NCBI RefSeq assembly: GCF_003019035.1
Contig: NZ_CP027447.1
Direction: 5' to 3' (one strand)
Source of the DNA: Escherichia coli
GTDB lineage: Bacteria > Pseudomonadota > Gammaproteobacteria > Enterobacterales > Enterobacteriaceae
Length of the DNA: 64,000 nt
The translations under genes were made by a program, and so were the position numbers. The notes beneath the pieces are model-generated. The model was given only the letters and a program-made list of their open reading frames with translations, searched no databases and was not told the origin of the DNA. Below, piece by piece: positions 36,770 to 63,297 of this stretch; within the stretch, counting starts at the first letter, position 1, and every line of letters begins with the position of its first letter.

Positions 36770-36778
36770 CCTGCCTCC

Positions 36779-39700: not shown

Positions 39701-40303
39701 ATCCGCATCAGCGGGAGCGCAGAGTGTGCCGTCGATATCAAAGATCACCGCCTGTTTACCGACATGGGGCGTGAGGTACAGGCGTTGTTCTGCGCCGCGC
39801 GCGCCCTCCGGGGCATAAATAATGTCTGACGGAAACCCCTCGCGCAGCAGTGTCGTTTTGCCACTGCCCACAGGACCGATGACCATATACCACGGCAACT
39901 GCCACAGGAAACGGCGGTTGTCGAGATGGCGTTGCAGGCGCAGCAGCCAGCGGTCGAGGTAACGCTGCTGGGCGTTCAGTTCCACACTGAGCGCATCAAC
40001 GGCTTCCTCGCGCTGTTGCTTTTGCATTTTTTCAAGCTGTTGCAGGCGCTTCATTACCCGGACGGTAAGCCACACCAGGGCAATAATCCCCCACGCCGCC
40101 GTTGCCAGCCAGCGGTTCGCCAGTGGTTTGAGCCACTGCTCTTCATACAGCGTCCATGTCGGGCCTTTCCACCAGATCCATACCAGCAGGAAAATCCACG
40201 CCAGTATCAGCAGCCAGAATGCAGAAACTTTAAACCGGGGCATCGCCGGGCGCAGGGCTGATTTGAGTTCGCTGAATAGTCGGGGTGTTGGTAATCTGAA
40301 CAC
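36779..40303 (-). CDS. tssM: T6SS membrane-complex protein TssM (IcmF)
   Basis: 1174-aa ORF, N-terminal TM segments, Walker A GPVGSGKTT. Confidence 0.93.
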   Translation of the reverse strand: MFRLPTPRLFSELKSALRPAMPRFKVSAFWLLILAWIFLLVWIWWKGPTWTLYEEQWLKPLANRWLATAAWGIIALVWLTVRVMKRLQQLEKMQKQQREEAVDALSVELNAQQRYLDRWLLRLQRHLDNRRFLWQLPWYMVIGPVGSGKTTLLREGFPSDIIYAPEGARGAEQRLYLTPHVGKQAVIFDIDGTLCAPADADILHRRLWEHALGWLKEKRARQPLNGIILTLDLPDLLTADKRRREHLLQTLRSRLQDIRQHLHCQLPVYVVLTRLDLLQGFAALFQSLNRQDRDAILGVTFTRRAHENDDWRTELNAFWQTWVDRMNLALPDLMVTQTHTRASLFSFSRQMQGSREPLVSLLEGLLDGENMNVMLRGVYLTSSLQRGQMDDIFTQSAARQYRLGNNPLASWPLVDTAPYFTRSLFPQALLAEPNLATESSAWLMRSRRRLTVFSATGGVAALLLITGWHHYYNGNYQSGITVLKQAKAFMDVPPPQGEDDFGNLQLPLLNPVRDATLAYGDWGERSRLADMGLYQGRRIGPYVEQTYLQLLEQRYLPSLFNGLVKAMNAAPPESEEKLAVLRVMRMLEDKSGRNNEVVKQYMAKRWSEKFHGQRDIQTQLMSHLDYALAHTDWHAERQAGDGDAISRWTPYDKPVVSAQKELSKLPVYQRVYQSLKTRALGVLPADLNLRDQVGPTFDQVFTSADDNKLVVPQFLTRYGLQSYFVKQRDELVELTAMDSWVLNLTRSVKYSDADRAEIQRQLTEQYISDYTATWRAGMDNLNIRNFESIGQLTGTLEQVISGDQPLQRALTVLRDNTQPGVFSEKLSAKERDEALAEPDYQLLTRLGHEFAPENSTLTVQKDKESTMQAVYQQLTELHRYLLAIQNAPVPGKSALKAVQLRLDQNSSDPIFATRQMAKTLPAPLNRWVGRLADQAWHVVMVEAVHYMEVDWRDSVVKPFNEQLANNYPFNPRSAQDASLDAFERFFKPDGILDTFYQQNLKLFIDNDLSLEDGDNNVIIREDIIAQLETAQKIRDIFFSKQNGLGTSFAVETVSLSGNKRRSVLNLDGQLVDYSQGRNYTAHLVWPNNMREGNESKLTLIGTSGNAPRSISFSGPWAQFRLFGAGQLTGVQDGNFTVRFSVDGGAMTYRVHTDTEDNPFSGGLFSQFGLSDTLY

Positions 40304-40321
40304 AAAAACTCCTGTTCTCTT

Positions 40322-41737: not shown

Positions 41738-41741
41738 ATTT

Positions 41742-42485
41742 TTATTCTCCCGCCCAGTGGCAGGCGTCGCGTAGCGGCGCAATAACCCGTGCCAGCCCGT
41801 CAATGTTAAAGGTCAGCTTTCCGGCTGCGTTGTCTGCGCCGGTATCCACCGTCAGCGTTGTTGCGCCGAACAGTTGCTTAATTTCATCAATCCCGGACAG
41901 CCCCCGGCTGGACTCCAGCAGGGTGCCGTTCTCGCGCACAAACCAGTGGCTGCGCAATACCCGGCTGTCGGCATTCAGGGTGACGGCGATATCATGGACA
42001 TCCAGAGGGTGCACCAGCGCCACCTGCATCCGGGTGATATTGTCCACACAGCTGAACATCAGCACCGGGCGAGGCGGAACATGGCCGATAGCCGGGGTGG
42101 TTACCACCACCGTCGGGCGTTCCCCCGGCACCTGCGTCACCAGCAGCTCTGTGGTGTTGCCCTGGCGACGTTTTTCCTGCTCTATGGCACGGGTCCAGGC
42201 TTCGCCCACAAAACTGGCTTTGACCAGCGCCCCGTCAAACCCTGACGGGGACAGCGGTTCCAGCAGGCGGTCATAGCAGTCAAGCCGCTCCAGCGCCGCG
42301 AACTCCCGCCGACAGGACTGCATGGCCTGTAATGTGGCTGTCGCATCCGGCGGGGTCGCTGTGGCGACGGCTACCGCCACACCGGCCATTGACGATGTTT
42401 CTGCGGGCGCGGCACTGGCGGGTAAGCCCGCCATCAGGCCCGCAATAAACCATCCTGTCTGCCGGAAAACGCGCAACCTGCTCAT
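41742..42485 (-). CDS. T6SS-associated secreted/periplasmic protein (VasI-like by position)
   Basis: 247-aa ORF with signal peptide (…LMAGLPASAAPA); sits between clpV and tssA as vasI does in V. cholerae. Confidence 0.5.
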   Translation of the reverse strand: MSRLRVFRQTGWFIAGLMAGLPASAAPAETSSMAGVAVAVATATPPDATATLQAMQSCRREFAALERLDCYDRLLEPLSPSGFDGALVKASFVGEAWTRAIEQEKRRQGNTTELLVTQVPGERPTVVVTTPAIGHVPPRPVLMFSCVDNITRMQVALVHPLDVHDIAVTLNADSRVLRSHWFVRENGTLLESSRGLSGIDEIKQLFGATTLTVDTGADNAAGKLTFNIDGLARVIAPLRDACHWAGE

Positions 42486-45241: not shown

Positions 45242-45249
45242 AAACGTCC

Positions 45250-46011
45250 TTATCGAAGTAATTTGTTTAGCTGGTGCAGGATGTCCTGCGTCTGGCTGTC
45301 CAGCCGCAACAGATAGAACAGGTAAAACAACGCCAGCACGACAACGCCACCACAAAAAATATGTTTAATGGTCAGGTGACTGATGAGCTGATAACGCCCG
45401 CCCTGGTTTTTTTTGTCCTGGTGTAACAGCGGGAAAGGGGCATCGCCGCGTAGTTTATGCAGGACGTGGTACAGGCGGCGGTAGATCTGCTCAAATTCTC
45501 CCTGATCCTGTGCTGCCACTTTGTAGCGCCCGCGAAATCCCAGAGAAAAACAGAGCCAGAGAAATTCCAGCAGATCCTGGTAACGTTTGGGTTCACGGAT
45601 CAGGCGCTCCAGCAGGATGAAAACTTTCTCGCCACCCCAGGCTTCGTTGTGGAAATGGACCAGCAATGACTGCTTGATCCACTCGTTCTTGTTCGACCAG
45701 CCGTTACCGAGCGCCGCTTCATCAATAAACGTGCAGAGGATGTAGCGAAACGAGATAATCACGCCCGGTTCGTAGCCCTGCTCCTGAAGCAGTTGCTCCA
45801 CGGCCTGAACATCCGTCACCACCTGAGCAAAAAGATGCTCCGGCATCGTCTGGCTGTTCATGGTTGAAAGGCGCATCACCATACCGAGGAGCGGCGTGGC
45901 TGCGTCGATCATCGGATTCAGGCTGTTGCCACGAAGCGCGAGATGGTAGTCGCGCTGGCCTTTTTCGTCGTGTCCGATAAATGGTGGCAGAGACAGTGAC
46001 TCCTCATCCAT
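45250..46011 (-). CDS. tssL: T6SS membrane-complex protein TssL (DotU family)
   Basis: 253-aa ORF with DotU-like cytoplasmic domain and single C-terminal TM segment; no peptidoglycan-binding extension. Confidence 0.85.
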   Translation of the reverse strand: MDEESLSLPPFIGHDEKGQRDYHLALRGNSLNPMIDAATPLLGMVMRLSTMNSQTMPEHLFAQVVTDVQAVEQLLQEQGYEPGVIISFRYILCTFIDEAALGNGWSNKNEWIKQSLLVHFHNEAWGGEKVFILLERLIREPKRYQDLLEFLWLCFSLGFRGRYKVAAQDQGEFEQIYRRLYHVLHKLRGDAPFPLLHQDKKNQGGRYQLISHLTIKHIFCGGVVVLALFYLFYLLRLDSQTQDILHQLNKLLR

Positions 46012-46015
46012 CGTC

Positions 46016-47347
46016 TTACCCTCTTATAGCCCACAGTTGCATATTCAGGTCCGGAAAACTGCCGGAGACATGCAGTGCAACGGCCCCGGCGGCAGCTATT
46101 TCAGCCCAGGCCTGGCCGCTTTTGTCGAGTTCGAAATAGCTGAACCCGGAATGGTAGGGAAGCTGGCGGGGAGCCACCATCAGTGCACGCAGAGGAATAC
46201 CGGGGATCTGCACACTGACCATATTGCGGATTTTTTCCGGCGAGGAAATTTTCGACTGCTGGATAAACTGGCGCTGGATCTGATCGACCGGCATGTTTGC
46301 CGCCACGGCCAGCACAAAGGTGGCAGATTGCAGCAGTTCTGTGTCATGGATATCGGCCTGCCAGATACCGTCACGCAGATGCAGCGGCAGATTGACGGCT
46401 CTTGGCGACAGTACGGTATGCAGCGCCCGTTTGACTTCCGGTAACAGCGTTTTAAATGTTTTGGTCAGGTCATGATGATCATACACATCAAGCGGGCAGG
46501 GCAGGCGCGACGGCTCGGTAAAGGTCATCAGTTCACCCAGCAACCCCGCAAGATCAAGGTAGAAATCTTCCGGGTGGAGCTGGGATCGACGAGCGCGATG
46601 GGTAAACCGGGTCTGGTTACGGTTAAGTAACTGCAACATCATAAATTCCGCCACATCCGCGATGCCGCTCTGCGCCGGAGAGCCAATGCGGTTTGCCAGA
46701 TCGCTTGCCCGTCCGCCAATGGCCCCCTGTACCTCTTTGAGATAAACACGCAGTTTCTTACTGACCTGAATATTCTGGCAGGAGGGGATAAAATCGTCAT
46801 CCAGCGTCAGGGAGCCGTCGGCATGGCGATCGCTGATACGGCAAAGCGGGAGCGTAATATAGGCGCTCATATCTTCTGCACCGCTCATAATGCGCGGCGT
46901 AAGTTGACCCAGCGTCAGTGTTCGCGCGTCACCTTCTTCTGAATGCAAATCCCGGACATCGGCATAATTCAGCCGGTAACGCCCGATTCGCCGCCCGTCG
47001 CTGATTTCATTTCTCACATCACTGGCGACCGGCAGAGCGAGGTAAATATTGCGGCTTCTTTCGTCCGGAAAATTTTGCGGGTGCAGCGGATCGGGCAGTG
47101 CGTCCTGGTCGGGGATAGAAAAGACGGTGCCGTCGGGCAGTGTGCCTGACGCGCTGTCAATCATGATCTTACCCTGCGCCAGCAGTTCATTGTTGAGGGT
47201 GAGTTCGGTAAATCCCCAGGATAAATCATTCATGGCCCGGAAACGCTGGTTATCCAGGTAGTCGTTGTAACGCTGCTGTTGCTGGAAATGGTGTGGGCGC
47301 ATCAGCATCCCTTCCTGCCACATCACCTTGTTGCGGGTGGTTGCCAT
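46016..47347 (-). CDS. tssK: T6SS baseplate protein TssK
   Basis: 443-aa ORF; N-terminus ...VMWQEGMLMRPHHFQQQQRY typical of TssK. Confidence 0.88.
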   Translation of the reverse strand: MATTRNKVMWQEGMLMRPHHFQQQQRYNDYLDNQRFRAMNDLSWGFTELTLNNELLAQGKIMIDSASGTLPDGTVFSIPDQDALPDPLHPQNFPDERSRNIYLALPVASDVRNEISDGRRIGRYRLNYADVRDLHSEEGDARTLTLGQLTPRIMSGAEDMSAYITLPLCRISDRHADGSLTLDDDFIPSCQNIQVSKKLRVYLKEVQGAIGGRASDLANRIGSPAQSGIADVAEFMMLQLLNRNQTRFTHRARRSQLHPEDFYLDLAGLLGELMTFTEPSRLPCPLDVYDHHDLTKTFKTLLPEVKRALHTVLSPRAVNLPLHLRDGIWQADIHDTELLQSATFVLAVAANMPVDQIQRQFIQQSKISSPEKIRNMVSVQIPGIPLRALMVAPRQLPYHSGFSYFELDKSGQAWAEIAAAGAVALHVSGSFPDLNMQLWAIRG

Positions 47348-47349
47348 AA

Positions 47350-47874
47350 TTATTCATCCTCTTTTTTCATTTCGATGCTGCTTTGACGTACATGCACCAG
47401 CAGGCGGTAATGGTGGCCGGTTCCTTCCACCGTCTCGATTTGTTTCCATTCAGTGGCCTGGTCATCGGAGAAATAGGCCACGACACCAATAAACTGCGTT
47501 TTCTCATCCAGCTTTACCGGCGGCAGGGTTTTGATGGTGTCCGGCAACAGGTTGAAATCCTGGTGGTCGATATAGTTTTTACCCAGCACATCCGGTAGCG
47601 GCGTACTGGCTATCTGGTCATAGTCGGCTGCCAGCAATTTTGAGTCGTCAGTCAGGTACACCAGTTGCACATCCACGGCGGCTGATTCACCCTCCGCATT
47701 GGTATTGGTGTCCGGTTCGGTCAGCAGGGTGACGGTTATTTCCGAAGGTTGCTCCTTCAGGCTCCCGACCTGGATATCCGGGTTTTTGATCACCTCACTG
47801 ATTTTTTTCGCCGTTTCGCAGCCGGTTAATATGACGCACATCAGCACGCAGGCCAGAAACGCCTTCCTGTTCAT
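47350..47874 (-). CDS. tssJ: T6SS outer-membrane lipoprotein TssJ
   Basis: 174-aa ORF with lipobox ILTGCE; position between tagH and tssK. Confidence 0.85.
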   Translation of the reverse strand: MNRKAFLACVLMCVILTGCETAKKISEVIKNPDIQVGSLKEQPSEITVTLLTEPDTNTNAEGESAAVDVQLVYLTDDSKLLAADYDQIASTPLPDVLGKNYIDHQDFNLLPDTIKTLPPVKLDEKTQFIGVVAYFSDDQATEWKQIETVEGTGHHYRLLVHVRQSSIEMKKEDE

Positions 47875-49172
47875 GCTTCCGGCTCCCGCTGTTTTTCACG
47901 AAGCACCCGGTCATAGACCTGGGCGTAGACCTCGTTAAACAGCATCTCAAACCCCTGCTGGCGATCGGAGGCCAGCTCTTCGTAATAATGGCTGTACATT
48001 TGCCATGCTCCGGCATCATCCAGCGGCTGGCGCAGTTCATGGCTGCGGCGGTACTGCACAAAGCGGCGCAGCAGATTTTGTGGTGAGAAGGCGTCCAGCA
48101 GGACACGAAGCGACTCCACAATCGCCGCCCGGTTAGCTTCTTCGTGGTGGCGGACATTGCGCAGGCTTTCACTGACAGCGGCGGGAGCCGCCAGATGTAC
48201 CGGACTTTTACCTTCGGCAAACATCACGTCGAGCGCGGTGGCGTAATCCATGTTCAGGCGCAGCGGGTTATCTTCCAGCGGGCGCAAATGTTTGTCTGAG
48301 AGGCTGTTACGCTGCTGCTGCAAATCAAGCAGACCTTTTATTGCGGCCTGTAACGTGCGTCCGGCCTCCTCCAGAAAATCATCCGCATCGTCGGAATTGC
48401 TCACGGTAAGCGAGCCGCCAAGACCGCGCAGTAAGGGGGTGACCGCAAGGTGGCGTTGCGCCATTTCTGCCACAGAGACGTCATCATTACGCTCGCCGGG
48501 GCTGGCATAAATGGGCGGCAGATCCATAAACGGCGTATTGATCCCCCCATTACTTGCCGGATCGGACAGCGGTGCCGATGGCCGGACAGCCGCAATGCCT
48601 GAAAGCGGATCGCCCGCGGTAATCAGGCTTTCGGACTGAAGTGCCTGGAGTGGATCGGCAGAAAAACCGTTTACCACGGTGTCTGCAAGCTGATGCCGGT
48701 GAGTCATTCCCGGATAGTGTGGCGCACCCTCCGTTGACAGCAGGGTATCCGTGAGCATATCGCGATTGGTGACGATGGTTTCGGGAGTGGCCATTTCCTC
48801 ATCGTAATGGGGGATATCTCCCCGGTTCAGATGAACCCTCACCATCAGACGCCCTATCTGGATCTCATCGCCCTGGCGCAGCTGTATCAGGTCTGATGTT
48901 GCTGTGACTTTTGCCTGGTTCAGCCACAGTTGTGCCGTCTGCGGGCGCAGACAAAATGTGCCATCGTGCAGGATAACGGTAAAGGCCTGAGCCGGAATGC
49001 TCTGCTGACGATCCTGTACCGACCAGTGGCATTCGGGGCCATGGCCGACATTTCCCTGCTGCGTGAACAGACAGCGCGCCGCCCGCCCGCTTTCCAGCTC
49101 ACTGCCGTTAATGACCTGCAATGAAAGCGTCTGTAGTTTCTCTTCCGGCATATTCTGCTCCGTGATTATCAT
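47871..49172 (-). CDS. tagH: T6SS FHA-domain protein TagH (Fha)
   Basis: 433-aa ORF with N-terminal FHA domain; ATGA overlap with tssJ. Confidence 0.85.
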   Translation of the reverse strand: MIITEQNMPEEKLQTLSLQVINGSELESGRAARCLFTQQGNVGHGPECHWSVQDRQQSIPAQAFTVILHDGTFCLRPQTAQLWLNQAKVTATSDLIQLRQGDEIQIGRLMVRVHLNRGDIPHYDEEMATPETIVTNRDMLTDTLLSTEGAPHYPGMTHRHQLADTVVNGFSADPLQALQSESLITAGDPLSGIAAVRPSAPLSDPASNGGINTPFMDLPPIYASPGERNDDVSVAEMAQRHLAVTPLLRGLGGSLTVSNSDDADDFLEEAGRTLQAAIKGLLDLQQQRNSLSDKHLRPLEDNPLRLNMDYATALDVMFAEGKSPVHLAAPAAVSESLRNVRHHEEANRAAIVESLRVLLDAFSPQNLLRRFVQYRRSHELRQPLDDAGAWQMYSHYYEELASDRQQGFEMLFNEVYAQVYDRVLREKQREPEA

Positions 49173-49175
49173 AAT

Positions 49176-50264
49176 TTACGACCGTACCCTGATGGTGACT
49201 GAGGGTCGTTCTTCCGGTGTGCCGAGGAAGCTGGTCCAGCCCAGCAGCGCACTTTTGTTATCGCCCAGGCGCATTGCGCCCACCTGCTCCGGTGCCAGCC
49301 CCAGATGTAAGTCCCAGGCAAGCTGATCGCGCAGGATGAAGGACACAAACATCGTCAGTGGCAGGAAGTTTTCGCCGGACGGCAGAAAAGAGAGGAGCTG
49401 TTTTCGGGTCAGGCTGGTAATACTGAGCTGGAATTTTCCGCTGAGATCGGGCACCCGTGTACCCAGAACAAAGTTGCCCAGTACCGATCTTCCGGCCAGT
49501 TTTTCGCCATTTTTAAGGGAATAGCTCCCCAGGCTGTTTTGCTGATCCGGTTCAATATCCACCTTGCGACGTTGCCAGTTTTGCAGCGTCACGTCTGACA
49601 AGTCAAAACAGTGTGACACCAGGCCGCAGATGATTTCCGGGGATCGTCCCGGATTTGCCAGGATCCCGGAATACGCCAGCATTTTGCTGTGATTAATCGC
49701 CAGCTTATCGCGAAGCTGGCGGTGGCCCAGCCCGACAAGGGAGTACATGCGCTGCGAGAACGCATCCACACCGCCGTTACGAAAACTGATGTGATAGCGG
49801 TACTTACGCCAGATATGCCAGACAAACTGGGTCAGGCGGTGGCTGAACATATCCAGAAAATCGCCTACCGGACTTTGTTCATGTACCGCTTTCCAGGCCA
49901 GGTGATCCAGGTAATAACCGGGGAGAGGCGACTGGCTCCCCTGTAACCCCATAAAGGTGGTGGTCATCCTGAATGCCCCTGACGTATCCCGTTTCAGCCC
50001 ACTGATATCACTGCACGGGAAGGCAAGGCTGGCATCGGCGCTGAAACGCAGGGTTTCCTGTGCCGGATCATCGCGCAGGGATAATTCCGGTGTCCCCTTT
50101 TCACCCTGTGCCAGGCGGTGCAACAGCTCCGCCATCGCAAAAAAATTGTAAGAGCAGGCGTTATGGAAAACCTGTGCCAGCGGATCATTCTGCTCTTTAT
50201 CTGCCGGGGGATGTCCCGGACTCAGATAAGAGGATGCTGCCCGGTTCTTTCCGTCCATTTCCAT
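49176..50264 (-). CDS. tssG: T6SS baseplate protein TssG
   Basis: 362-aa ORF directly downstream of tssF; start may be internal (43-nt overlap with tssF as drawn). Confidence 0.85.
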   Translation of the reverse strand: MEMDGKNRAASSYLSPGHPPADKEQNDPLAQVFHNACSYNFFAMAELLHRLAQGEKGTPELSLRDDPAQETLRFSADASLAFPCSDISGLKRDTSGAFRMTTTFMGLQGSQSPLPGYYLDHLAWKAVHEQSPVGDFLDMFSHRLTQFVWHIWRKYRYHISFRNGGVDAFSQRMYSLVGLGHRQLRDKLAINHSKMLAYSGILANPGRSPEIICGLVSHCFDLSDVTLQNWQRRKVDIEPDQQNSLGSYSLKNGEKLAGRSVLGNFVLGTRVPDLSGKFQLSITSLTRKQLLSFLPSGENFLPLTMFVSFILRDQLAWDLHLGLAPEQVGAMRLGDNKSALLGWTSFLGTPEERPSVTIRVRS

Positions 50265-52072
50265 GTCTCCTGGCTTTCTGTGTTCACAACGGTCAGCATG
50301 TGGAATGAGTTAACGCTGGCGTACAGCGACAGAAAATGCGAAAGCACCGTACCGAGCAGATACATTTCCCCTTCACAGACAAACGGCTCCGGGTGCAGAT
50401 ACAGCGTGGAGGCCAGCCCCCGGACGGGAATGCCCGTAAACAGGCGATCGACAGGGCGGGTCTCCAGACGCTCAATGGCATCCAGCTTTTGTTGTGACAG
50501 CCGCGCCGTCTGCGGATGATGGATTGCGTGGCGATCAAAGTTGGCGATGACCTGCTTCAGCGCGTCCGTATCTAGTAATGACAGATAATTCAGGTTCATG
50601 GCGGAGAGCAGGGACCAGTGCAGGCTGCCATCAATGACCGGCCAGAGCGGTTGCGTCGGGCGGGTAATGTTGCGAAATGAAGCAACAGCCGCATTTTTAC
50701 CGGTTGTGCCGGTGATATCGCCGGAACGAATTTGTGACGGAAGCTCACGGTTGGTACAGGTCAGCGATACCGAAACCACTTCATTACTGAGCAGCGATTC
50801 GTCTGACGGATAACTGCCATCAGCATGTATAAAAGCAAGGGTATGATCAAAGCCGCGATGGAACAGGGATGTTTTGGTCCGGTGATGCCAGTACACCACT
50901 TCCCGCTTCCGGCTGTATTCCATCTGATGGCTGAAACTTTCAAAGGCAGGCCACTGGCGCGCGGCCTGCGTCGAAACAGGACGCCCCAGATCTTTTTTCC
51001 TGAACATATCCTGCACCTGGCTCACCACGCCGTTAACGGAAAAGACATCGTAATGTTCCGGATAGTGGCGGCTGGGAACCAGCGGATAGTCTGCCCGCCG
51101 GTTGTCCAGCGTGATGGCTTCTGCATGGTGGATAAATAAATTAATGGCAGGTGCGCAATACAGGCGCAGAGAATCGCGGCGCAGCCGGATGTCCACGGGC
51201 AATGGGCGCGAAAAACGCAGTTGCAGGGTAAAGGATTCAGCCTGCAATCCGTCAGGCAACGCCGGGCAACCACAAAGATCAAAAAAGAGAAACGCATCCG
51301 GGTAACAGAAATACTCCTGAAGGATCCGGTAGCCGCTGTGGACGTTTTTCGGCCAGGGCAGCATGGCATCCTGCGGCTCAAAACCGACAGCTTTCAGCAT
51401 AAACTCAGGCAGGCGAATATGCTGTTCACCCACAGTCAGGTCGGCACCCTGCAAGTATTCACAGAACCATAAATAAAGCTGGTCACGGGTATAGTTGTCG
51501 TCATTGCCGAGCCAGAAGCGAAGTTTGTTCAGATCCAGCGTGCGGAAGTCCGTTCCCGGTGCGACCGAAAAGGTGATGTTGATAACACCATTACGGGTCG
51601 TACTGCGGTTTTCAATCTGCTCCAGGCGAACGGGCAGCAGCCAGATATCCCGGCAGAGGGTGAAGGTACAGGGAGGCGGCTCCTCCTTTTTAGCATCGGA
51701 GGGCAGCACTTCATCGACTCTAATTTCCCCGGCGTTGGTTGTAAACTGCTCATTACGGGGGATTAACACCGGCACAGAAGACTTATCCATATCCGGCGTA
51801 TATTCAATAAGGGTCATTGCCGGAACCGGACGCAGGTAATTAGGCCACAGCATCTTAATAAGCCCGTGCGTCAGTTCTGGGAATTCATCCTCAATTTTCT
51901 GGCGGAGATTGCCGGTAAGAAAAGCCACGCCTTCCAGCAGGCGTTCAATATCCGGATCCGCATCTTTTTCGGCCAGGAAGCGGGCCAGATGGGGTTTTTC
52001 CGTTGCCAGCAGCTTGCTGAGCTGGCGCAGGTAATCGAGTTCTTCCCGGAAATAGCGTTCTTCAAATTCCAT
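50222..52072 (-). CDS. tssF: T6SS baseplate protein TssF
   Basis: 616-aa ORF MEFEERYFREELDYLRQLSKLLATEKPHLARFL... Confidence 0.88.
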   Translation of the reverse strand: MEFEERYFREELDYLRQLSKLLATEKPHLARFLAEKDADPDIERLLEGVAFLTGNLRQKIEDEFPELTHGLIKMLWPNYLRPVPAMTLIEYTPDMDKSSVPVLIPRNEQFTTNAGEIRVDEVLPSDAKKEEPPPCTFTLCRDIWLLPVRLEQIENRSTTRNGVINITFSVAPGTDFRTLDLNKLRFWLGNDDNYTRDQLYLWFCEYLQGADLTVGEQHIRLPEFMLKAVGFEPQDAMLPWPKNVHSGYRILQEYFCYPDAFLFFDLCGCPALPDGLQAESFTLQLRFSRPLPVDIRLRRDSLRLYCAPAINLFIHHAEAITLDNRRADYPLVPSRHYPEHYDVFSVNGVVSQVQDMFRKKDLGRPVSTQAARQWPAFESFSHQMEYSRKREVVYWHHRTKTSLFHRGFDHTLAFIHADGSYPSDESLLSNEVVSVSLTCTNRELPSQIRSGDITGTTGKNAAVASFRNITRPTQPLWPVIDGSLHWSLLSAMNLNYLSLLDTDALKQVIANFDRHAIHHPQTARLSQQKLDAIERLETRPVDRLFTGIPVRGLASTLYLHPEPFVCEGEMYLLGTVLSHFLSLYASVNSFHMLTVVNTESQETWKWTERTGQHPLI

Positions 52073-52075
52073 CTG

Positions 52076-52489
52076 TCAGTCCACCCGGTAATGCTGGCTG
52101 CCATTCGGTGCCATATCAAATTCAAGCACTTCATGCGTTTCGTTAAATGTCACCCAGGCTGTAATATGAAACGTCATATCCAGCGGGCTGGCGGCGGATG
52201 AAACCACAGCCTGCACTTCAGCGTGTGAGATCCGGGGTTCATAGCGTTCTATACATTGCGCGATGGCCCGACTCATTGATTGGCGGAAGTTTTCAGCCCC
52301 TTCCGGTTCATCAATGCCCAGTTCAGGCGCACCCCGGCAACTACCGGACCGGGTATTAAGAATGTTTCGCAGGTTCTGGCGAATGGACTGCCTGAGCGCA
52401 TGAATACTGCTTCCCTGCCGGTTTCTGGCCGGTGAGGCTTCCATACGCTCAAAAAGAGAACCTGTGGTTCTTTCCCGATCCGGTATCAT
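52076..52489 (-). CDS. tssE: T6SS baseplate protein TssE (gp25-like)
   Basis: 137-aa ORF between tssC and tssF. Confidence 0.85.
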   Translation of the reverse strand: MIPDRERTTGSLFERMEASPARNRQGSSIHALRQSIRQNLRNILNTRSGSCRGAPELGIDEPEGAENFRQSMSRAIAQCIERYEPRISHAEVQAVVSSAASPLDMTFHITAWVTFNETHEVLEFDMAPNGSQHYRVD

Positions 52490-52495
52490 GGCGTG

Positions 52496-53971
52496 TTACT
52501 CCCTGTCTAACCGGCCAACCAGGGAAAGCTCAAAGTTTGCCCCCATAAATTTAAAATGGGGCCGCACGCTCAGCGCGACCTGGTACCAGCCGGGTTCGCC
52601 TTCCACATCCATAACCTCAACTTTGGCAGCGCGCAGAGGTTTACGGCTGCGCACGTCCGCAGGCGGGTTTTCCTGGTCGGCAACATACTGACGGATCCAG
52701 GTATTAAGCTCTCTTTCTAAGTCGCTCCTTTCTTTCCATGACCCCAGTTGTTCACGCTGCAACACCTTGATGTAGTGCGCTAACCGGTTGATGATGAAGA
52801 GATAAGGAAGCTGCGTACCCAGCTTATAGTTGGTTTCTGCGTCTTTGCCCGGAAAGTGCTTCGGTTTTTGTACCGAGTTTGCAGAGAAAAAGGCTGCATT
52901 ATCAGAGTCTTTACGCATGGTAAGGGTGATAAAACCCTCTTCAGCCAGTTCAAATTCGCGGCGATCGGTGACCAGCACCTCGGTTGGGATTTTGGCCTGA
53001 ATCTGACCCATCGTTTCGAACAGATGCACCGGCAGATCTTTCACTGCGCCGCCGCTTTGCGGACCGATGATATTTGGACACCAGCGGTATTTGGCAAAAC
53101 TGTCTGCGACATTGCACGCCAGCATCCAGGCCGTATTACCCCACAGATAATCTTCGTGGTTCCGGCTGACATCTTCGTGATAGTTAAAGTTCTTAACAGG
53201 GTTATCTGTTGGTGAATAAGGCTGGCGAAGCAGGAAGCGGGGTGCCGTAAGCCCTAAATAGCGCGAATCTTCCGAGTCACGCAGGGCGCGCCATTTGGTG
53301 TAGGCCGGACCTTCAAAGATGGCATAAAGATCTTTGATATTAGGCAGTTCGGTCCACGAGTTCAGCCCCATAAATTCCGGGGAAACGGAGGACAGGAACG
53401 GTGCGTGCGCCATTGCGCCCACGGCACTGACGTATTGCAGCAGTTTCATGTCAGGCGCGGTATTTTTGAACTCATAAGCGCCCAGCACGGCAGCGATGGG
53501 TTCACCGCCAAACTGTCCGAAACCGGACGAATAAACGTGCTTATAAAATCCGGACTGAATAATTTCTGGCGCAAACTCAAAGTCTTCCAGAAGTTCCTGC
53601 TTGGTGACATGAAGCACGTTGACCTTGATGTTTTCACGGAAATCAACGCGATCCACCATTGTTTTCAGTGAGCGCCAGAACGACTCGACCTGCTGAAAGG
53701 CAGGCGCATGGATGATGACATCCATCTGGCGGCTGATGCGTTCATCAATATCTGCAATCATGCTGTCCACGGCCAGTTTATTGACCGGTTCGGCAGATGC
53801 AGTGGATTGCAGGATGCTGGCAATAAAGGCTGTCACACCCTGGCGGGCAACGTCATAACCTTCCGAACCGGGCTGAATACGGGTCTGTGCCATGATTTGA
53901 TCAAGCAGCGACGATGCCTGCTCAGGCTGCCCGGCATGACTGGAAACGAGTTCCTCTTCCTGTAAAGACAT
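52496..53971 (-). CDS. tssC: T6SS contractile sheath large subunit TssC (VipB)
   Basis: 491-aa ORF with conserved TssC core. Confidence 0.93.
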   Translation of the reverse strand: MSLQEEELVSSHAGQPEQASSLLDQIMAQTRIQPGSEGYDVARQGVTAFIASILQSTASAEPVNKLAVDSMIADIDERISRQMDVIIHAPAFQQVESFWRSLKTMVDRVDFRENIKVNVLHVTKQELLEDFEFAPEIIQSGFYKHVYSSGFGQFGGEPIAAVLGAYEFKNTAPDMKLLQYVSAVGAMAHAPFLSSVSPEFMGLNSWTELPNIKDLYAIFEGPAYTKWRALRDSEDSRYLGLTAPRFLLRQPYSPTDNPVKNFNYHEDVSRNHEDYLWGNTAWMLACNVADSFAKYRWCPNIIGPQSGGAVKDLPVHLFETMGQIQAKIPTEVLVTDRREFELAEEGFITLTMRKDSDNAAFFSANSVQKPKHFPGKDAETNYKLGTQLPYLFIINRLAHYIKVLQREQLGSWKERSDLERELNTWIRQYVADQENPPADVRSRKPLRAAKVEVMDVEGEPGWYQVALSVRPHFKFMGANFELSLVGRLDRE

Positions 53972-54021
53972 ACTGAAAATCCTTCTGTTTTAGCTGTGTT
54001 TCTGAAACCGGCTTTTCGCCA

Positions 54022-54246
54022 TCAGTGAAGTACGCGCTGCCAGTGCGACGCGCTCTGCTGAAACTCACAAAAATGGATAATCTCATCCAATAGATCACTG
54101 ATACGGCGATCCAGTGTTGTAATCAGCGCAGCCACACCATCCTGGTTGATTTCAACGGACGGGCTGAAACATACCTGGTAAACCACCTGCAGAATGTCTG
54201 CAACAGAGAGGTGGTATGTCCCGGAGATATTTTTGTGTGCCGTCAT
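54022..54246 (-). other. Short ORF (74 aa) resembling the N-terminal segment of TssC; possible gene fragment
   Basis: ...VAALITTLDRRISDLLDEIIHFCEFQQSASHWQRVL aligns by eye (about 40% identity) with TssC residues ...VDSMIADIDERISRQMDVIIHAPAFQQVESFWRSL. Confidence 0.3.
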
Positions 54247-54280
54247 GCCTGGATAACCCTGTTTAATGAAATAGTGGTGG

Positions 54281-54781
54281 TTATTTATTGCTCACCCGGC
54301 CGATTTCTTTGAGCAACTGCTCGCGGGACTCCTCATTTTCCAACAATGCCTGGAGCTGGGTACGGAATGCCGGAAGGTTACCCATCGGCCCCTTCAGTGC
54401 AGTCAGTGCTTCACGCAGTTCCAGCAATTTATTCACTTCCGGAACCTGCCGGGCCACGCTATCTGGTGAAAAATCATCCAGTGATTTGATATTCAGCGCC
54501 ACATTCAGTTCATCGTCTGTTGTGCTTCCCTTCAGCGTGGCGGGGACAGTAAAATTGAGGCCAATGGCTGCTTCAGCCATCACTGCACCGAAATTGTGCT
54601 TGTTAACGGAAACTGCCTGACGTTCATCCAGTGGGGATGTTTCCTGCGTATTTCCGGTATCGCCGACAACGAGCATGTTAAGCGGAAGTTCCACTTCAGC
54701 CGTCTGGCCATCTGTTTTTGGGACATACGATATATTAATACGCTCGCGAGGCGCGACGCTGCCTTCAAATTTTTTGCTCAT
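54281..54781 (-). CDS. tssB: T6SS contractile sheath small subunit TssB (VipA)
   Basis: 166-aa ORF MSKKFEGSVAPRERINISYVPKTDGQTAEVELPLNMLVVGD... Confidence 0.9.
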   Translation of the reverse strand: MSKKFEGSVAPRERINISYVPKTDGQTAEVELPLNMLVVGDTGNTQETSPLDERQAVSVNKHNFGAVMAEAAIGLNFTVPATLKGSTTDDELNVALNIKSLDDFSPDSVARQVPEVNKLLELREALTALKGPMGNLPAFRTQLQALLENEESREQLLKEIGRVSNK

Positions 54782-55477: not shown

Positions 55478-55996
55478 ATGCCAACACCGTGTTATATCTC
55501 CATCACTGGTCAGACCCAGGGAAATATTACTGCAGGTGCATTTACCGCTGATTCTGTCGGCAACATCTATGTGCAGGGGCACGAAGACGAGATGCTGGTG
55601 CAGGAATTCCTGCATAACGTTACTGTCCCGACCGATCCTCAGTCCGGCCAGCCTGCGGGTCAGCGTGCTCACAAGCCGTTCATTTTTACCGTGGCGCTGA
55701 ACAAAGCTGTTCCGCTGATGTACAACGCACTGGCCTCCGGCGAAATGCTGCCAACCACTGAACTTCACTGGTGGCGTACCTCTGTGGAAGGCAAACAGGA
55801 GCATTATTTCACCACCCGCCTGACCGATTCGACGATTGTCGATATGAAACTGCATATGCCGCATTGCCAGGATCCGGCGAAACGCGAGTTCACCCAGTTG
55901 CTCGAAGTTTCACTGGCCTACCGCAAAATAGAGTGGGAACACGTCAAATCTGGCACCTCCGGTGCCGACGACTGGCGCGCACCGCTGGAAGCATAA
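55478..55996 (+). CDS. hcp: T6SS inner tube protein Hcp (TssD)
   Basis: 172-aa ORF MPTPCYISITGQTQGNITAGAFTADSVGNIYVQGHEDE... Confidence 0.93.
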   Translation: MPTPCYISITGQTQGNITAGAFTADSVGNIYVQGHEDEMLVQEFLHNVTVPTDPQSGQPAGQRAHKPFIFTVALNKAVPLMYNALASGEMLPTTELHWWRTSVEGKQEHYFTTRLTDSTIVDMKLHMPHCQDPAKREFTQLLEVSLAYRKIEWEHVKSGTSGADDWRAPLEA

Positions 55997-56205: not shown

Positions 56206-58314
56206 ATGTCAACCGGATTACGTTTCACGCTGGAAGTGGACGGCCTGCCACCGGACGCGTTTGCGGTGGTCTCCTTTCATCTGAACCAGTCACTCTCTTC
56301 GCTCTTTTCCCTCGATCTCTCTCTGGTCAGCCAGCAGTTTCTCTCCCTTGAATTTGCGCAGGTGCTGGACAAAATGGCCTACCTGACGGTATGGCAGGGC
56401 GATGACGTACAGCGCCGGGTGAAAGGTGTGGTGACCTGGTTTGAACTGGGGGAGAACGACAAAAACCAGATGCTGTACAGCATGAAGGTGTGCCCACCGC
56501 TGTGGCGCACAGGGCTGCGCCAGAACTTCCGTATCTTCCAGAATGAGGACATCGAAAGCATACTCGCGACGATCCTGAAAGAAAACGGGGTGACCGAGTG
56601 GAGTCCGCTGTTCAGCGAGCCGCATCCTTCCCGTGAGTTTTGTGTCCAGTACGGCGAAACCGATTACGATTTCCTGTGCCGGATGGCGGCGGAGGAAGGC
56701 ATCTTCTTTTATGAGGAGCACGCGCAAAAAAGTACCGACCAGAGCCTGGTCCTGTGCGACACCGTGCGTTATCTGCCGGAGTCCTTTGAGATCCCCTGGA
56801 ATCCGAACACCCGTACCGAGGTGAGCACCCTATGCATCAGCCAGTTCCTCTACAGCGCACAAATCCGCCCATCTTCCGTGGTGACCAAAGACTACACCTT
56901 TAAACGACCCGGCTGGGCAGGGCGTTTTGATCAGGAAGGCCAGCACCAGGATTACCAGCGCACACAGTATGAAGTGTATGACTACCCCGGACGTTTCAAG
57001 GGTGCCCACGGGCAGAACTTTGCCTGCTGGCAGATGGATGGCTGGCGAAACAACGCAGAAGTGGCGCGCGGAACAAGCCGTTCGCCGGAGATATGGCCGG
57101 GACGGCGAATTGCGCTGACGGGGCATCCGCAGGCGAACCTGAACCGGGAATGGCAGGTGGTGGCAAGTGAACTGCACGGCGAGCAGCCGCAGGCGGTGCC
57201 GGGACGCAGTGGTTCAGGTACCACGCTGAATAACCACTTTGCGGTAATACCGGCAGACAGAACATGGCGGCCACAGCCGTTGCTGAAACCGCTGGTGGAC
57301 GGCCCGCAGAGCGCCGTCGTGACGGGACCGGCAGGAGAAGAAATCTTCTGTGATGAACATGGCCGCGTGCGGGTGAAATTTAACTGGGACCGTTATAACC
57401 CGTCAAACCAGGACAGTTCATGCTGGATCCGTGTGGCACAGGCGTGGGCAGGCACCGGGTTTGGTAACCTGGCGATACCGCGTGTGGGTCAGGAGGTCAT
57501 TGTGGACTTCCTCAACGGCGATCCGGACCAGCCGATTATTATGGGGCGCACCTACCACCAGGAAAACCGCACCCCCGGCAGCCTGCCGGGAACAAAGACG
57601 CAAATGACCATTCGTTCAAAAACCTATAAGGGCAGCGGGTTTAATGAACTGAAGTTTGACGATGCGACAGGGAAAGAACAGGTCTACATCCACGCGCAGA
57701 AGAACATGAACACCGAGGTGCTGAATAACCGCACCACAGATGTGATAAACAACCATGCTGAGACCATCGGCAACAATCAGGTGATTGCGGTTACCAACAA
57801 TCAGATACAGACGGTGGGCGTTAACCAGATAGAGACGGTGGGCAGTAACCAGATCATTAAAGTGGGCTCTGTTCAGGTGGAAACGATTGGACTTGTTCGT
57901 GCGCTGACTGTGGGCGTGGCGTATCAGACGACGGTAGGTGGCATTATGAACACCTCGGTGGCCCTGATGCAGTCCTCGCAGATCGGTTTGCATAAATCGT
58001 TGATGGTCGGGCTGGGTTATGACGTCAAAGTCGGAAATAACGTTACCTTCACCGTTGGTAAAACGAAAAAGGATGATACCGGGCAGACCGCGATTTACTC
58101 CGCCGGTGAGCATCTGGAACTCTGCTGTGGTAAGGCAAGGCTGGTGCTGACTAAGGACGGACAAATTTTTCTCAACGGCACAAAAATTCATTTGCAGGGT
58201 AAGGAGCAGGTTAATGGTGACTCACTGTTGATTAACTGGAACTGTGCAGCCTCGAAATCCCCACCGAAGACCCCTGATGAAAAGCAGGATACGCCGGATA
58301 TGAGAGAGTACTGA
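56206..58314 (+). CDS. vgrG: T6SS spike protein VgrG (TssI)
   Basis: 702-aa ORF, N-terminus MSTGLRFTLEVDGLPPDAFAVVSFHLNQSLSSLFSLDLSLVSQQ, beta-helix repeat region (TVGVNQIETVGSNQIIKVGSVQVETIG). Confidence 0.93.
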   Translation: MSTGLRFTLEVDGLPPDAFAVVSFHLNQSLSSLFSLDLSLVSQQFLSLEFAQVLDKMAYLTVWQGDDVQRRVKGVVTWFELGENDKNQMLYSMKVCPPLWRTGLRQNFRIFQNEDIESILATILKENGVTEWSPLFSEPHPSREFCVQYGETDYDFLCRMAAEEGIFFYEEHAQKSTDQSLVLCDTVRYLPESFEIPWNPNTRTEVSTLCISQFLYSAQIRPSSVVTKDYTFKRPGWAGRFDQEGQHQDYQRTQYEVYDYPGRFKGAHGQNFACWQMDGWRNNAEVARGTSRSPEIWPGRRIALTGHPQANLNREWQVVASELHGEQPQAVPGRSGSGTTLNNHFAVIPADRTWRPQPLLKPLVDGPQSAVVTGPAGEEIFCDEHGRVRVKFNWDRYNPSNQDSSCWIRVAQAWAGTGFGNLAIPRVGQEVIVDFLNGDPDQPIIMGRTYHQENRTPGSLPGTKTQMTIRSKTYKGSGFNELKFDDATGKEQVYIHAQKNMNTEVLNNRTTDVINNHAETIGNNQVIAVTNNQIQTVGVNQIETVGSNQIIKVGSVQVETIGLVRALTVGVAYQTTVGGIMNTSVALMQSSQIGLHKSLMVGLGYDVKVGNNVTFTVGKTKKDDTGQTAIYSAGEHLELCCGKARLVLTKDGQIFLNGTKIHLQGKEQVNGDSLLINWNCAASKSPPKTPDEKQDTPDMREY

Positions 58315-58380: not shown

Positions 58381-61300
58381 ATGAGCGGAAAACCGGCGGC
58401 GCGTCAGGGAGATATGACCCAGTATGGCGGTCCCATTGTCCAGGGTTCGGCAGGTGTAAGAATTGGCGCGCCCACCGGCGTGGCCTGTTCAGTGTGCCCG
58501 GGCGGAGTCACTTCCGGCAACCCGGTAAACCCGCTGCTGGGAGCGAAGGTGCTGCCCGGTGAGACGGATGTTGCGCTGCCCGGTCCGCTGCCGTTCATTC
58601 TCTCCCGCACCTACAGCAGCTACCGGACCCGGACGCCTGCACCGGTGGGCGTTTTCGGCCCCGGCTGGAAAGCGCCTTCTGATATCCGCTTACAGCTACG
58701 TGATGACGGACTGATACTCAACGACAACGGCGGGCGGAGCATTCACTTTGAGCCGCTGCTGCCGGGGGAGGCGGTGTACAGCCGCAGCGAGTCAATGTGG
58801 CTGGTGCGTGGCGGTAAGGCAACGCAGCCGGACGGCCACACGCTGGCACGGCTGTGGGCGTCGCTGCCGCCGGATATCCGGTTAAGCCCGCATCTTTACC
58901 TGGCGACCAACAGCGCACAGGGGCCGTGGTGGATACTCGGCTGGTCAGAGCGGGTGCCGGGTACTGAGGACGTACTGCCAGCGCCGCTGCCGCCGTACCG
59001 GGTGCTTACCGGGCTGGCGGACCGCTTCGGGCAGACGCTGACGTACCGGCGTGAGGCCGCCGGTGACCTGGCCGGGGAAATCACCGGCGTGACGGACGGT
59101 GCCGGGCGGAAGTTCCGTCTGGTGCTGACCACACAGGCGCAGCGGGCGGAAGAGGCCCGTAAACAGCACACCGCTTCCTTATCTTCCCCTGACACCCCCC
59201 GCCCTCTTTCAGACTCAGCTTTCCCCGACACACTGCCCGGTACGGAATACGGCCCCGACAGGGGTATCCGCCTTTCGGCGGTGTGGCTGATGCACGACCC
59301 GGCATACCCGGAAAGCCTGCCCGGTGCGCCACTGGCGCGGTACACGTATACGGAAGCCGGTGAACTGCTGGCGGTATATGACCGCAGCAATACGCAGGTG
59401 CGCGCTTTCACGTATGACGTGCAGCACCCGGGCCGGATGGTGGGGCACCGTTATGCGGGAAGGCCGGAGATGCGCTACCGCTACGACAATACCGGGCGGG
59501 TGGTGGAGCAGCTGAACCCGGCAGGGTTAAGCTATCGCTATCTTTATGAGCAGGACCGCATCACCATCACGGACAGCCTGAACCGGCGAGAGGTGCTGCA
59601 TACAGAAGGCGGGGCCGGGCTGAAGCGGGTGGTGAAAAAAGAACTGGCGGACGGCAGCGTCACGCACAGCGGGTATGACGCGGCAGGAAGGCTCACGGCA
59701 CAGACGGACGCGGCGGGACGGCAGACAGAGTACGGTCTGAATGTGGTGTCAGGCGATATCACGGACATCACCACGCCGGACGGGCGGGAGACGAAATTTT
59801 ACTATAACGACGGGAACCAGGTGACGGCAGTGGTGTCCCCGGACGGGCTGGAGAGCCGCCGGGCGTATGATGAGCGGGACAGGCTGGTAACGGAGACATC
59901 GCGCAGTGGGGACGTCATCCGGTATGCTTATGATAATCCGCACAGTGAATTACCGGCCACGACAACAGATGCGACGGGCAGCACCCGGCAGATGACCTGG
60001 AGCCGCTACGGGCAGTTGCTGGCGTTCACCGACTGCTCGGGCTACCAGACCCGCTATGAGTACGACCGCTTCGGCCAGATGACGGCGGTCCACCGCGAGG
60101 AAGGCATCAGCCTTTACCGCCGCTATGACAACCGTGGCCGGTTAACCTCGGTGAAAGACGCACAGGCCCGTGAAACGCAGTATGAGTACAACGCCGCAGG
60201 CGACCTGACTGCCGTTATCACCCCGGATGGCAACCGGAGTGAGACACAGTACGATGGGTGGGGAAAGGCCATCAGCACCACGCAGGGCGGGCTGACGCGC
60301 AGTATGGAGTACGATGCTGCCGGACGTATCACCACGCTGACTAACGAGAACGGCAGCCACAGCGACTTTAGTTACGATGCGCTGGACCGCCTGATACAGC
60401 AGGGCGGCTTTGACGGGCGGACGCAACGTTATCATTATGACCTGACCGGAAAACTCACGCAGAGTGAAGATGAGGGGCTTGTCATCCTCTGGTACTACGA
60501 TGAATCGGACCGTATTACTCACCGCACGGTAAACGGTGAACCGGCAGAACAGTGGCGGTATGACGGCCACGGCTGGCTGAGAGAAATCAGCCACCTGAGC
60601 GAAGGCCACCGTGTTGCCGTCCACTATGGCTATGATAATAAAGGCCGCCTGACCAGTGAGCGCCAGACGGTGCATCACCCGGAGACGGGAGAGCTGCTCT
60701 GGCAGCATGAGACCGGACATGCGTACAACGAACAGGGGCTGGCAAACCGCGTCACGCCGGACAGTCTGCCGCCGGTGGAGTGGCTGACCTATGGTAGCGG
60801 TTATCTGGCAGGCATGAAGCTGGGCGGGACGCCGCTGCTGGAGTTCACGCGCGACCGCCTGCACCGTGAGACGGTGCGCAGCTTCGGCAGCATGGCAGGC
60901 AGTAATGCCGCATACGAACTGACCAGCACATACACCCCTGCAGGCCAGTTACAGAGTCAGCACCTGAACAGCCTGGTGTATGACCGTGACTACGGGTGGA
61001 ATGACAACGGAGACCTGGTGCGCATCAGCGGCCCGCGACAGACGCGGGAATACGGCTACAGCGCCACGGGCAGGCTGGAGAGTGTGCGCACCCTCGCACC
61101 GGACCTGGACATCCGCATCCCGTATGCCACGGACCCGGCGGGCAACCGGCTGCCGGACCCGGAGCTGCACCCGGACAGTACACTCACAGTGTGGCCGGAT
61201 AACCGCATCGCGGAGGATGCGCACTATGTCTACCGCCACGATGAATACGGCAGGCTGACGGAGAAGACGGACCGCATCCCGGCGGGTGTGATACGGACGG

Positions 61301-61989
61301 ACGACGAGCGGACCCACCACTACCACTACGACAGCCAGCACCGCCTGGTGTTCTACACGCGGATACAGCATGGCGAGCCACTGGTCGAGAGCCGCTACGT
61401 CTACGACCCGCAGGGACGGCGAATGGCGAAACGGGTATGGCGGCGGGAGCGTGACCTGACGGGGTGGATGTCGCTGTCGCGTAAACCGGAGGTGACGTGG
61501 TACGGCTGGGACGGCGACCACCTGACGACGGTGCAGACCGACAGCACACGTATCCAGACGGTATACGAGCCGGGAAGCTTCACACCGCTCATCCGCATCG
61601 AAACAGACAACGGCGAGCGGGAGAAAACGCAGCGGCGGAGCCTGGCGGAGAAGCTCCAGCAGGAAGGGAGCGAGGACGGACACGGTGTGGTGTTCCCGGC
61701 TGAACTGGTGAGGATGCTGGACAGGCTGGAGGAAGAAATCCGGGCAGACCGCGTGAGCGGTGAAAGCCGGACGTGGCTTGCACAGTGCGGGCTGGCGGTG
61801 GAGCAACTGGAAAAACAGGTGGAGCCGGAATACACGCCGGAACGCACACTGCATCTTTACCACTGCGACCATCGGGGACTGCCGCTGGCGCTTATCAGCG
61901 AAGACGGCAATACGGTGTGGAGCGCGGAGTATGATGAATGGGGAAACCTGCTTAATGAGGAGAACCCGCATCATGTGTATCAGTCATAG
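58381..61989 (+). CDS. rhs: PAAR-domain Rhs protein, core region, terminated by in-frame TAG
   Basis: 1202-aa ORF; N-terminal PAAR-like region ([42 protein letters not shown]) then YD/RHS repeats; ends ...[11 protein letters not shown] at TAG 61987-61989. Confidence 0.9.
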
Positions 61990-62598
61990 CGTCTGCCGGG
62001 GCAGCAGCATGATGAGGAGTCGGGGCTGTATTATAACCGGAACCGGTACTACAATCCGTTGCTGGGGAGGTATATTACCCAGGATCCAATTGGGCTGGAG
62101 GGGGGATGGAACCTGTATAATTACCCACTGAATCCGATAATAAGGATGGATCCTTTGGGTTTGTATAATTTATATCAATTATTATATGATGTTTGGCATG
62201 ATGATTCATATGGAACATCATCAATTGATATTACTGGCAGTGGAGATCTAATATCATTAGGTGGTCATGCAGGACTTGGCGTTGCGTTTGCTAAAAAGAA
62301 AGGTGAAATGTTATCTGATATTTGTATTTATGCTACAGCATGCGGACATGCAGGAATTGGTGGTGGGATAAATGCGGCTATCACATATTCTGAGACCAAG
62401 TCTTTACCTACATCGGGAGTCAGCAATTCAGTAGGTGTAACGGTTGGCGGCGGAGTTGGGGGGCATTTTGCGTATACTTATGTAGTGGATGTTGATAATC
62501 CAGAATCATCGACAGAATCTGTTGGTATCGGTGCAGGTGTTGACGCTTCAGTTATGACTCTGGCTTGTAGAACGTGGCAAGAATGCTGGGTCAATTAA
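61990..62598 (+). other. Rhs C-terminal region in frame with the core: conserved junction (DPxGL motif) plus glycine-rich candidate toxin domain
   Basis: Same frame as 58381 ORF; [58 protein letters not shown] then an AT-rich, Gly-rich tail; track ORF 62059 begins at TTG, no ATG. Confidence 0.6.
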
Positions 62599-62609: not shown

Positions 62610-63005
62610 ATGAAAGAATATATATTTTTAGTTTTATTTTTATTGTGTGGTTGTTCTCCAGTGGACATAGAGCCAGCTAGACAAGAAGTTAATATCTTTC
62701 GTGGTTTATATCAGACAGGAAAATACAGTGATATATATAAAATCACTTCAAGTGATTTTCAGACTGCCACATCTGAAAAAAAATTTATCGACATAATGAG
62801 CGAAGCAAAAGGAAAAGATCTTGGGACTTATAAAAAATCAACCCTTAAAACTGAAAAAATCACTCGCGGATTATTTTCAAACGATGAAATTACATTGATA
62901 TATTTCTCAGAATATTCAAAAAGAATTGTCCAAGAGGTTTTTGTGTTTAATGTTGAAGACAAAAAAGTAAAATTAAAAGGTTATAGGTATGATTCGATTA
63001 ATTAA
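62610..63005 (+). CDS. Putative lipoprotein, candidate Rhs immunity protein
   Basis: ORF 62574-63005; ATG at 62610 behind AGGAGG; MKEYIFLVLFLLCGCSP lipoprotein signal; AT-rich; immediately after the Rhs C-terminal domain. Confidence 0.6.
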   Translation: MKEYIFLVLFLLCGCSPVDIEPARQEVNIFRGLYQTGKYSDIYKITSSDFQTATSEKKFIDIMSEAKGKDLGTYKKSTLKTEKITRGLFSNDEITLIYFSEYSKRIVQEVFVFNVEDKKVKLKGYRYDSIN

Positions 63006-63297
63006 ATTTTTTGATGATGACTTCAATTAGTAGAACATGTATTTTTCGATAAAAGCACCGATGACTTTTTCATGAAGTTCTACAGAGCGCGAGAAACAGA
63101 TGGTTCTGCGAGTCAGACGTTTGATTCAGGTTCTCAGGGGCAGATTCAGGGACAGGGAAAGATCATCAGAAGTTCACTTTTTGCACTAAATAATTCGCAT
63201 TTTATGTTTAAAAATTGAGATATTTCTCATTACCTGAAACTGTTTTTTTATTGCTTATACATGATCAAATACTCCTTACATAATTAAGGAGAACAAA

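Follow-up and report, generated by a model that had tools for sequence, protein, structure and literature searches.

We analysed a 64-kb window, by which we mean the whole stretch of DNA presented here. It is part of the Escherichia coli chromosome, and contains dnaE, accA, an rRNA operon, dnaQ and tRNA-Asp, followed by a complete T6SS cluster (Table 1). Every tss gene annotated in the near-identical genome of SCU-301 (NZ_CP051751.1; loci L001, L007 and L040 of our collection) is open in the window, including tssH, which occupies an ORF at 42482-45355. Beside this cluster, at aspV, we identified the gene order hcp-vgrG-rhs-immunity, linking the rhs gene to hcp, vgrG and the full set of tss genes.

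The locus contains a YD-repeat shell, a C-terminal core with an autoprotease motif, and a variable tip followed by an immunity gene, as in PAAR-Rhs polymorphic toxins. RefSeq names the homologous genes in other genomes "RHS element core protein" and "RHS element protein dsORF-e4". In the upstream part of rhs we detected TIGR01643 YD repeats and a DUF6531 domain (residues 46-123, E = 1e-18), and the extreme N-terminus gave weak matches to the Pfam PAAR_motif family (residues 2-29, E = 0.14 and 1.4). The neighbouring VgrG is represented in two related loci (L004 and L005) by a 702-aa protein with Phage_GPD, Phage_base_V and Gp5_trimer_C domains. We additionally noted long antisense ORFs on the minus strand of the rhs core, where GC content is 62-70% (60949-61974, 60142-60864 and 58896-59411, encoding up to 341 aa), which are probably stop-poor frames arising from base composition, and not genes. 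Scanning 61800-63300 for promoters and terminators returned no more sites than did shuffled sequence.

Table 1. Features of the rhs locus and its T6SS surroundings, in coordinates of the window.
Feature	Position	Strand	Description and basis
T6SS structural cluster by tRNA-Asp (aspV)	34910..54781	-	hcp, vasL, tssM, tssA, vasI, tssH, dotU, tssK, tssJ, tagH, tssG, tssF, tssE, tssC, tssB; ORF list compared with SCU-301 RefSeq annotation
hcp	55478..55996	+	172 aa; ORF; annotated as Hcp family T6SS effector in SCU-301 and JNE23-011
vgrG	56206..58314	+	702 aa, intact; ORF
Truncated rhs ORF	58381..61989	+	1202 aa, ATG start, ends at TAG (ORF list); N-terminal PAAR-like/DUF6531 region and YD-repeat shell
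Amber codon 1203	61987..61989	+	TAC (Tyr) in close relatives; G in place of C at 61989
Last 58 core codons	61990..62163	+	Untranslated after TAG; autoprotease motif and predicted cleavage site
C-terminal toxin domain, "e"-type tip	62164..62598	+	144 aa (62164-62595) and TAA; glycine-rich, GC ~40%
Putative immunity gene	62610..63005	+	131 aa; "RHS element protein dsORF-e4" in relatives
IS1 transposase remnant	63027..63125	-	Coordinates transferred from SCU-301 annotation, offset 55699
ISAs1-family (ISEc1, "H-repeat") transposase	from ~63298, runs off window end		SCU-301 annotation

For the toxin tip, none of the Pfam or NCBIfam families was matched, and homologues were found only in the Rhs tips of E. 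coli, Citrobacter and Enterobacter, forming a shallow set at 75-100% identity. An AF2 model of the tip is all-beta and of low confidence (pLDDT 60), and a Foldseek search with this model against the PDB returned no match with E < 0.001. The tip also contains several GxxxG-like runs. The putative immunity gene is preceded by its own Shine-Dalgarno sequence (AGGAGG, 62600-62605), is identical to that of the related loci L004-L006, and gave only weak DUF matches in Pfam. Its product opens with a lipoprotein-like signal, MKEYIFLVLFLLCGC... (..LLCGC), and this, together with the glycine-rich composition of the tip, hints at an envelope or membrane target for the toxin, which we offer as a guess.

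Position of the amber codon within the Rhs core

When translated in one frame, 58381-62598 comprises 1405 codons and a terminal TAA, with codon 1203 as its sole internal stop. This codon is a TAG on the plus strand, in the context ...CAT GTG TAT CAG TCA TAG CGT CTG CCG GGG CAG CAG..., and the rhs frame past it stays open to 62598. The in-frame stop and the open frame beyond it, both reported in the initial annotation, are borne out by the sequence, the ORF list and the translation, and the YITQDPIGL...DPLGL text that it quoted is present 3' of the TAG. The mechanical ORF list contains a second ORF in this region, of 179 aa, running from a TTG start at 62059 to 62598. This downstream ORF had been said to have no ATG or ribosome-binding site of its own, of which the second part holds; an in-frame ATG does exist, at 62146 (Met1256), and no usable ribosome-binding site accompanies it.

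The same annotation had placed the stop at the junction between the Rhs core and its toxin, which the profile and motif positions contradict. In an NCBIfam profile search, the TAG falls at position 1203 of the 1261 positions of the RHS_core profile NF041261, and precedes the cleavage site at DPLGL (62149-62163) by 58 codons. The upstream ORF matches positions 1-1202 of this profile (2591 bits, against a cut-off of 2000) and the downstream piece matches positions 1204-1261, so that the match is full length at the DNA level and its last 59 positions are absent from the translated product. Of the 76 positions in the shorter Rhs-associated core profile TIGR03696, the downstream piece covers 19-76 (74.5 bits, cut-off 32.5), and this profile is likewise split by the TAG. 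GC content falls from ~62% to ~40% only from about 62100.

Three-dimensional homologues give the same placement. The last ~105 core residues align to solved Rhs proteins with E = 1e-14 to 1e-26, with the solved cores aligning across the region of the stop and terminating precisely with DPxGL. The aspartyl autoprotease motif, DPIG-x18-DPLG, occupies residues 1235-1260 (62083-62160), with D1235 and D1257 as the catalytic aspartates, the first of them 32 residues after the stop. Cleavage is predicted after L1261 (62163), at the end of the DPLGL boundary. The motif is therefore present in the DNA, and, lying 3' of the TAG, is not expected in the protein. The equivalent aspartates are needed both to release the toxin and for its activity in RhsA (D1324/D1346; PMC8765631), Rhs1 (D1338; PMC8636562) and Tse5 (D1141/D1164; PMC10684867), and in the same three systems the cocoon is closed by a plug formed from the C-terminal region (PMC8765631, PMC8636562, PMC10684867).

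Codon 1203 in related rhs alleles and the reliability of the base call

We investigated which codon stands at position 1203 in other rhs alleles. It is TAC in all of the close relatives SCU-301, JNE23-011 and MLI023K1, in the last of which rhs is annotated as frameshifted. Among 5,426 complete E. coli genomes, none contained exactly the 101 nt that have the TAG at their centre, and the best match, in SCU-301, carried a single mismatch, the C of the TAC allele. With the tyrosine restored, the 1405-aa protein is found with exact identity in GCA_900603765.1, GCA_030294445.1 and the ENA metagenome scaffold LEEM22-1, which are independent, public assemblies. Over 4,959-7,620 aligned bases the DNA of these three differs from the window at only 2-3 positions. 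Two differences are common to all of them, namely 60060, which is synonymous, and 61989 (G in the window, C in the relatives), the sole non-synonymous base difference between the window and the relatives that encode the exact protein. At 60060 the window has G and the three relatives have A. The G is also present in other rhs alleles, and may be an ordinary polymorphism or mark a small gene-conversion tract between rhs paralogues.

Searches of wider collections gave a similar picture. An exact 31-nt pattern containing the TAG matched no contig among metagenomes and GTDB representative genomes, and the same pattern with TAC, used as a control, matched 30 metagenome contigs and 2 GTDB genome contigs. 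Since loci L008-L039 were picked by the TAC pattern, their primary matches are not independent evidence for C at 61989, and we counted as such only loci L001-L007 and secondary copies. Neither the truncated 1202-aa product nor the 179-aa product initiated at TTG had an identical entry in the contig collection, which carries little weight as pseudogenes often have no protein record.

The residue at this position is more variable in the wider family. Among 120 enterobacterial Rhs cluster representatives, the homologous column contains isoleucine in 80, tyrosine in 29, leucine in 8, phenylalanine in 1 and a gap in 2, and in the distant Rhs proteins of solved structure it is leucine or isoleucine. 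The consensus tyrosine given in the initial annotation is thus correct for the close relatives of this allele, and not for the family. None of the 120 representatives ends or begins at this column.

Comparison with SCU-301 bears both on the age of the stop and on the quality of the assembly. Over 31000-56700, a stretch of 25.7 kb upstream of vgrG, we found no substitutions between the two genomes, and in the ~31 kb further upstream, with the rRNA operon excluded, only two (24982 and 30384). SCU-301 is thus a very close relative, and the change at 61989, if real, is recent. We additionally noted a 1.28-kb IS621 element (IS110 family) between yaeF and nlpE in SCU-301, which is absent from the window (~11069-11070).

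The main competing explanation, which we consider unlikely, is an error of sequencing, assembly or polishing, in which case the strain would truly carry TAC and an intact, functional Rhs effector. The TAG allele is known from one assembly only, and, of the handful of positions at which the window departs from near-identical relatives, two fall within the rhs gene. The site moreover lies in the multi-copy rhs core, where assemblies are least reliable and where that of SCU-301 is visibly noisy, with dozens of 1-bp indels (compared over window positions 18500-24000 and 56700-61700). These indels are confined to repeats, namely the rRNA operon, vgrG, rhs and IS elements, indicating that it is the SCU-301 assembly that is noisy, and not the window. 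The annotations of vgrG, rhs and tssH as frameshifted in SCU-301 look, from the sequence comparison, like assembly noise and not biology.

The window, by contrast, is otherwise clean. It shows no indels against loci L004-L006 over 5-7.6 kb, and in unique DNA the single indel against SCU-301 (43386) is the annotated tssH frameshift of SCU-301 itself, a 1-bp deletion there. The typical error of long reads is an indel and not a substitution. Mis-polishing, for its part, would bring in the base of a paralogue, whereas C was found at every homologous place examined, among them loci L001-L007, which were obtained independently, and the diverged secondary copies inside loci; as no examined paralogous copy has G at the site, polishing from paralogues would not create a TAG. 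On these comparisons the window appears to bear no sign of being error-prone, though the site sits in a multi-copy gene, and we infer that the base call at 61989 reflects a true mutation.

Origin and consequences of the stop codon

Our preferred reading, to which we assign a probability of roughly 0.8, is that the stop is a recent nonsense mutation, private to this strain, which would disarm a T6SS-linked Rhs effector and leave a young and otherwise ordinary pseudogene. The gene has one internal stop, the codon is sense in near-identical alleles, and the remaining frame is undegraded, as expected of a recent nonsense pseudogene. Among the explanations offered in the initial annotation it is this one that gains support, from the TAC of close relatives, the exact match of the tyrosine-containing protein and the single non-synonymous base. 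Counting against it, besides the single assembly and the multi-copy setting discussed above, is the nature of the change, as few spontaneous substitutions in E. coli occur less often than G:C to C:G transversions.

Under this reading, a single C-to-G transversion would have converted Tyr1203 (TAC) to amber (TAG) in this strain only. RF1-competent ribosomes would then terminate 58 residues short of the C-terminal end of the Rhs core. In the product, residues 1-1202, the N-terminal region that loads onto VgrG and the greater part of the YD shell would be retained, and the C-terminal plug with D1235 and D1257, the cleavage site at DPLGL and all 144 residues of the toxin would be missing. The Rhs effector would thereby be disarmed, the truncated protein being presumably non-toxic. 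As to spike assembly on such a truncated cage, efficient assembly of the T6SS in Enterobacter cloacae reportedly depends on the PAAR motifs and the cage, according to a later article's citation of that work (Donato et al. 2020, cited in PMC10763514), and in Pseudomonas protegens a truncated RhsA that lacks the toxin (residues 1-1323) is expressed and its N-terminal cleavage still occurs (PMC8765631). Because the immunity gene is intact and has its own strong Shine-Dalgarno sequence, the strain should stay protected from kin that deliver the toxin. The TAG is followed by C, which is not the strong +4U termination context (PMC5289835), and some basal leak-through to full-length Rhs at UAG-C is possible.

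A variant of the nonsense-mutation reading, which we regard as very improbable, holds that the truncation was selected and does not reflect neutral decay, the 1-1202 product acting as a "spike without warhead", a cage-only Rhs. With its VgrG-loading region, the cage would allow the spike to go on being built and other effectors to be fired, and a costly or self-harming membrane-active toxin would be removed, with the retained immunity gene guarding against toxin-proficient kin. Low leak-through at UAG-C could still supply a little full-length toxin. On this account, recurrent selection would explain why e-type rhs genes have been broken again and again, in independent events (frameshift, deletion and nonsense mutation), close to where the core ends on the 3' side.

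Still less credible is the proposal, also made in the initial annotation, that the TAG is decoded by a suppressor tRNA encoded elsewhere in the genome, or is efficiently read through, so as to yield a functional full-length Rhs. The frame downstream is fully open and identical to that of functional-looking alleles, which is expected anyway for so recent a stop, and the C at +4 is not the strongest termination context; the stop itself, however, is conserved in none of the relatives, which have TAC, and the genome search described above found no exact TAG match. Nor did we find a stimulatory RNA, as the 100 nt from the TAG (61987-62086) fold less well than shuffled sequences (z = +1.23) and the only Rfam match, at 20 bits where the gathering score is 100, was a chance one. 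The four tRNAs of the 64-kb window (Ile-GAT, Ala-TGC and two Asp-GTC) include none with a CUA anticodon, and hence no amber suppressor. To our knowledge natural E. coli isolates normally have no amber suppressors, and we know of no programmed UAG readthrough in Rhs genes.

The least probable explanation is a functional split, in which the truncated cage would serve as a PAAR/VgrG tip adaptor and the toxin would be made separately, from the ATG at 62146 or by reinitiation: this ATG stands five codons before the cleavage site, gene callers report a 150-aa ORF from it in hundreds of assemblies (697 index blocks), and the toxin-less RhsA of P. protegens cited above is expressed and N-terminally cleaved, but the ATG has no properly spaced Shine-Dalgarno sequence (a TAAGG abuts it, with zero spacing), the TTG at 62059 has none, later in-frame starts fall inside the toxin, intact fused genes exist, the 150-aa calls arise behind several different lesions and so result from gene decay, not from a conserved two-gene layout, and a toxin made outside the cage would have no known route onto the T6SS.

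Taking the stop as a nonsense mutation, the rhs gene would be best annotated as one pseudogene with an internal stop, and not as two genes, and the 179-aa TTG ORF would not be entered as a protein. The strain probably cannot deliver the toxin of its own T6SS cluster and should still be immune to it, which matters only for phenotypes of competition at the strain level. The stop is real in the sequence but ordinary, and the intact form of the allele is already in public databases. Pseudogenes and relics of rhs were scored across E. coli by Jackson et al. (PMC2935791), and as broken rhs genes are common, the disruption described here is one further case of a well-documented decay, and opens no new question.

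Comparison with other Rhs loci and solved Rhs systems

The closest counterpart of the interrupted gene is the intact allele in GCA_030294445.1, GCA_900603765.1 and LEEM22-1, encoding the 1405-aa "RHS element core protein", in which the other 1404 residues are identical to those encoded in the window. Its neighbours are also the same, as a 702-aa VgrG is encoded upstream, and the immunity gene (131 aa) and a transposase gene of the ISAs1 family follow. The intact allele differs in having TAC (Tyr) in place of TAG at codon 1203, and in the one synonymous position, 60060.

The tip also occurs at a different chromosomal locus, rhsE, which is annotated as a pseudogene in K-12. The genes at this locus have the same e-type tip and dsORF-e4/YdcD as the window, with DNA that is identical from ~62095 (checked to 62200), and they too are often disrupted towards the 3' end of the core. 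Their cores differ, being ~5-12% diverged, and their lesions are frameshifts or deletions and not the nonsense codon of the window. Most of the places where gene callers list the toxin-only ORF (62146-62598 in the window, beginning MDPLGL...) as a gene in its own right belong to the rhsE locus, which lies between yncH and pptA. In loci L041-L046, where the ORF lies at 5001-5453, the cores upstream are broken in different ways, L042 by an insertion of 1 nt, and L041, L043, L045 and L046 by an internal deletion. We considered the 150-aa toxin-only ORF as a natural split architecture and rejected it, as the calls sit behind these different lesions.

Finally, the layout encoded at this locus is that of the solved Rhs systems, namely P. 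protegens RhsA (7Q97), Pseudomonas aeruginosa Tse5 (8CP6), Photorhabdus Rhs1/Tre23 (7PQ5) and Salmonella bongori Rhs (8QJB-D), all of which comprise a YD-repeat cocoon, a C-terminal plug with a DPxG-x18/19-DPxG aspartyl autoprotease and an encapsulated toxin of ~15 kDa. The toxin domains of these proteins are unrelated to the tip encoded in the window. In all four systems the plug and the toxin are translated, whereas in the window translation stops earlier, within the core.
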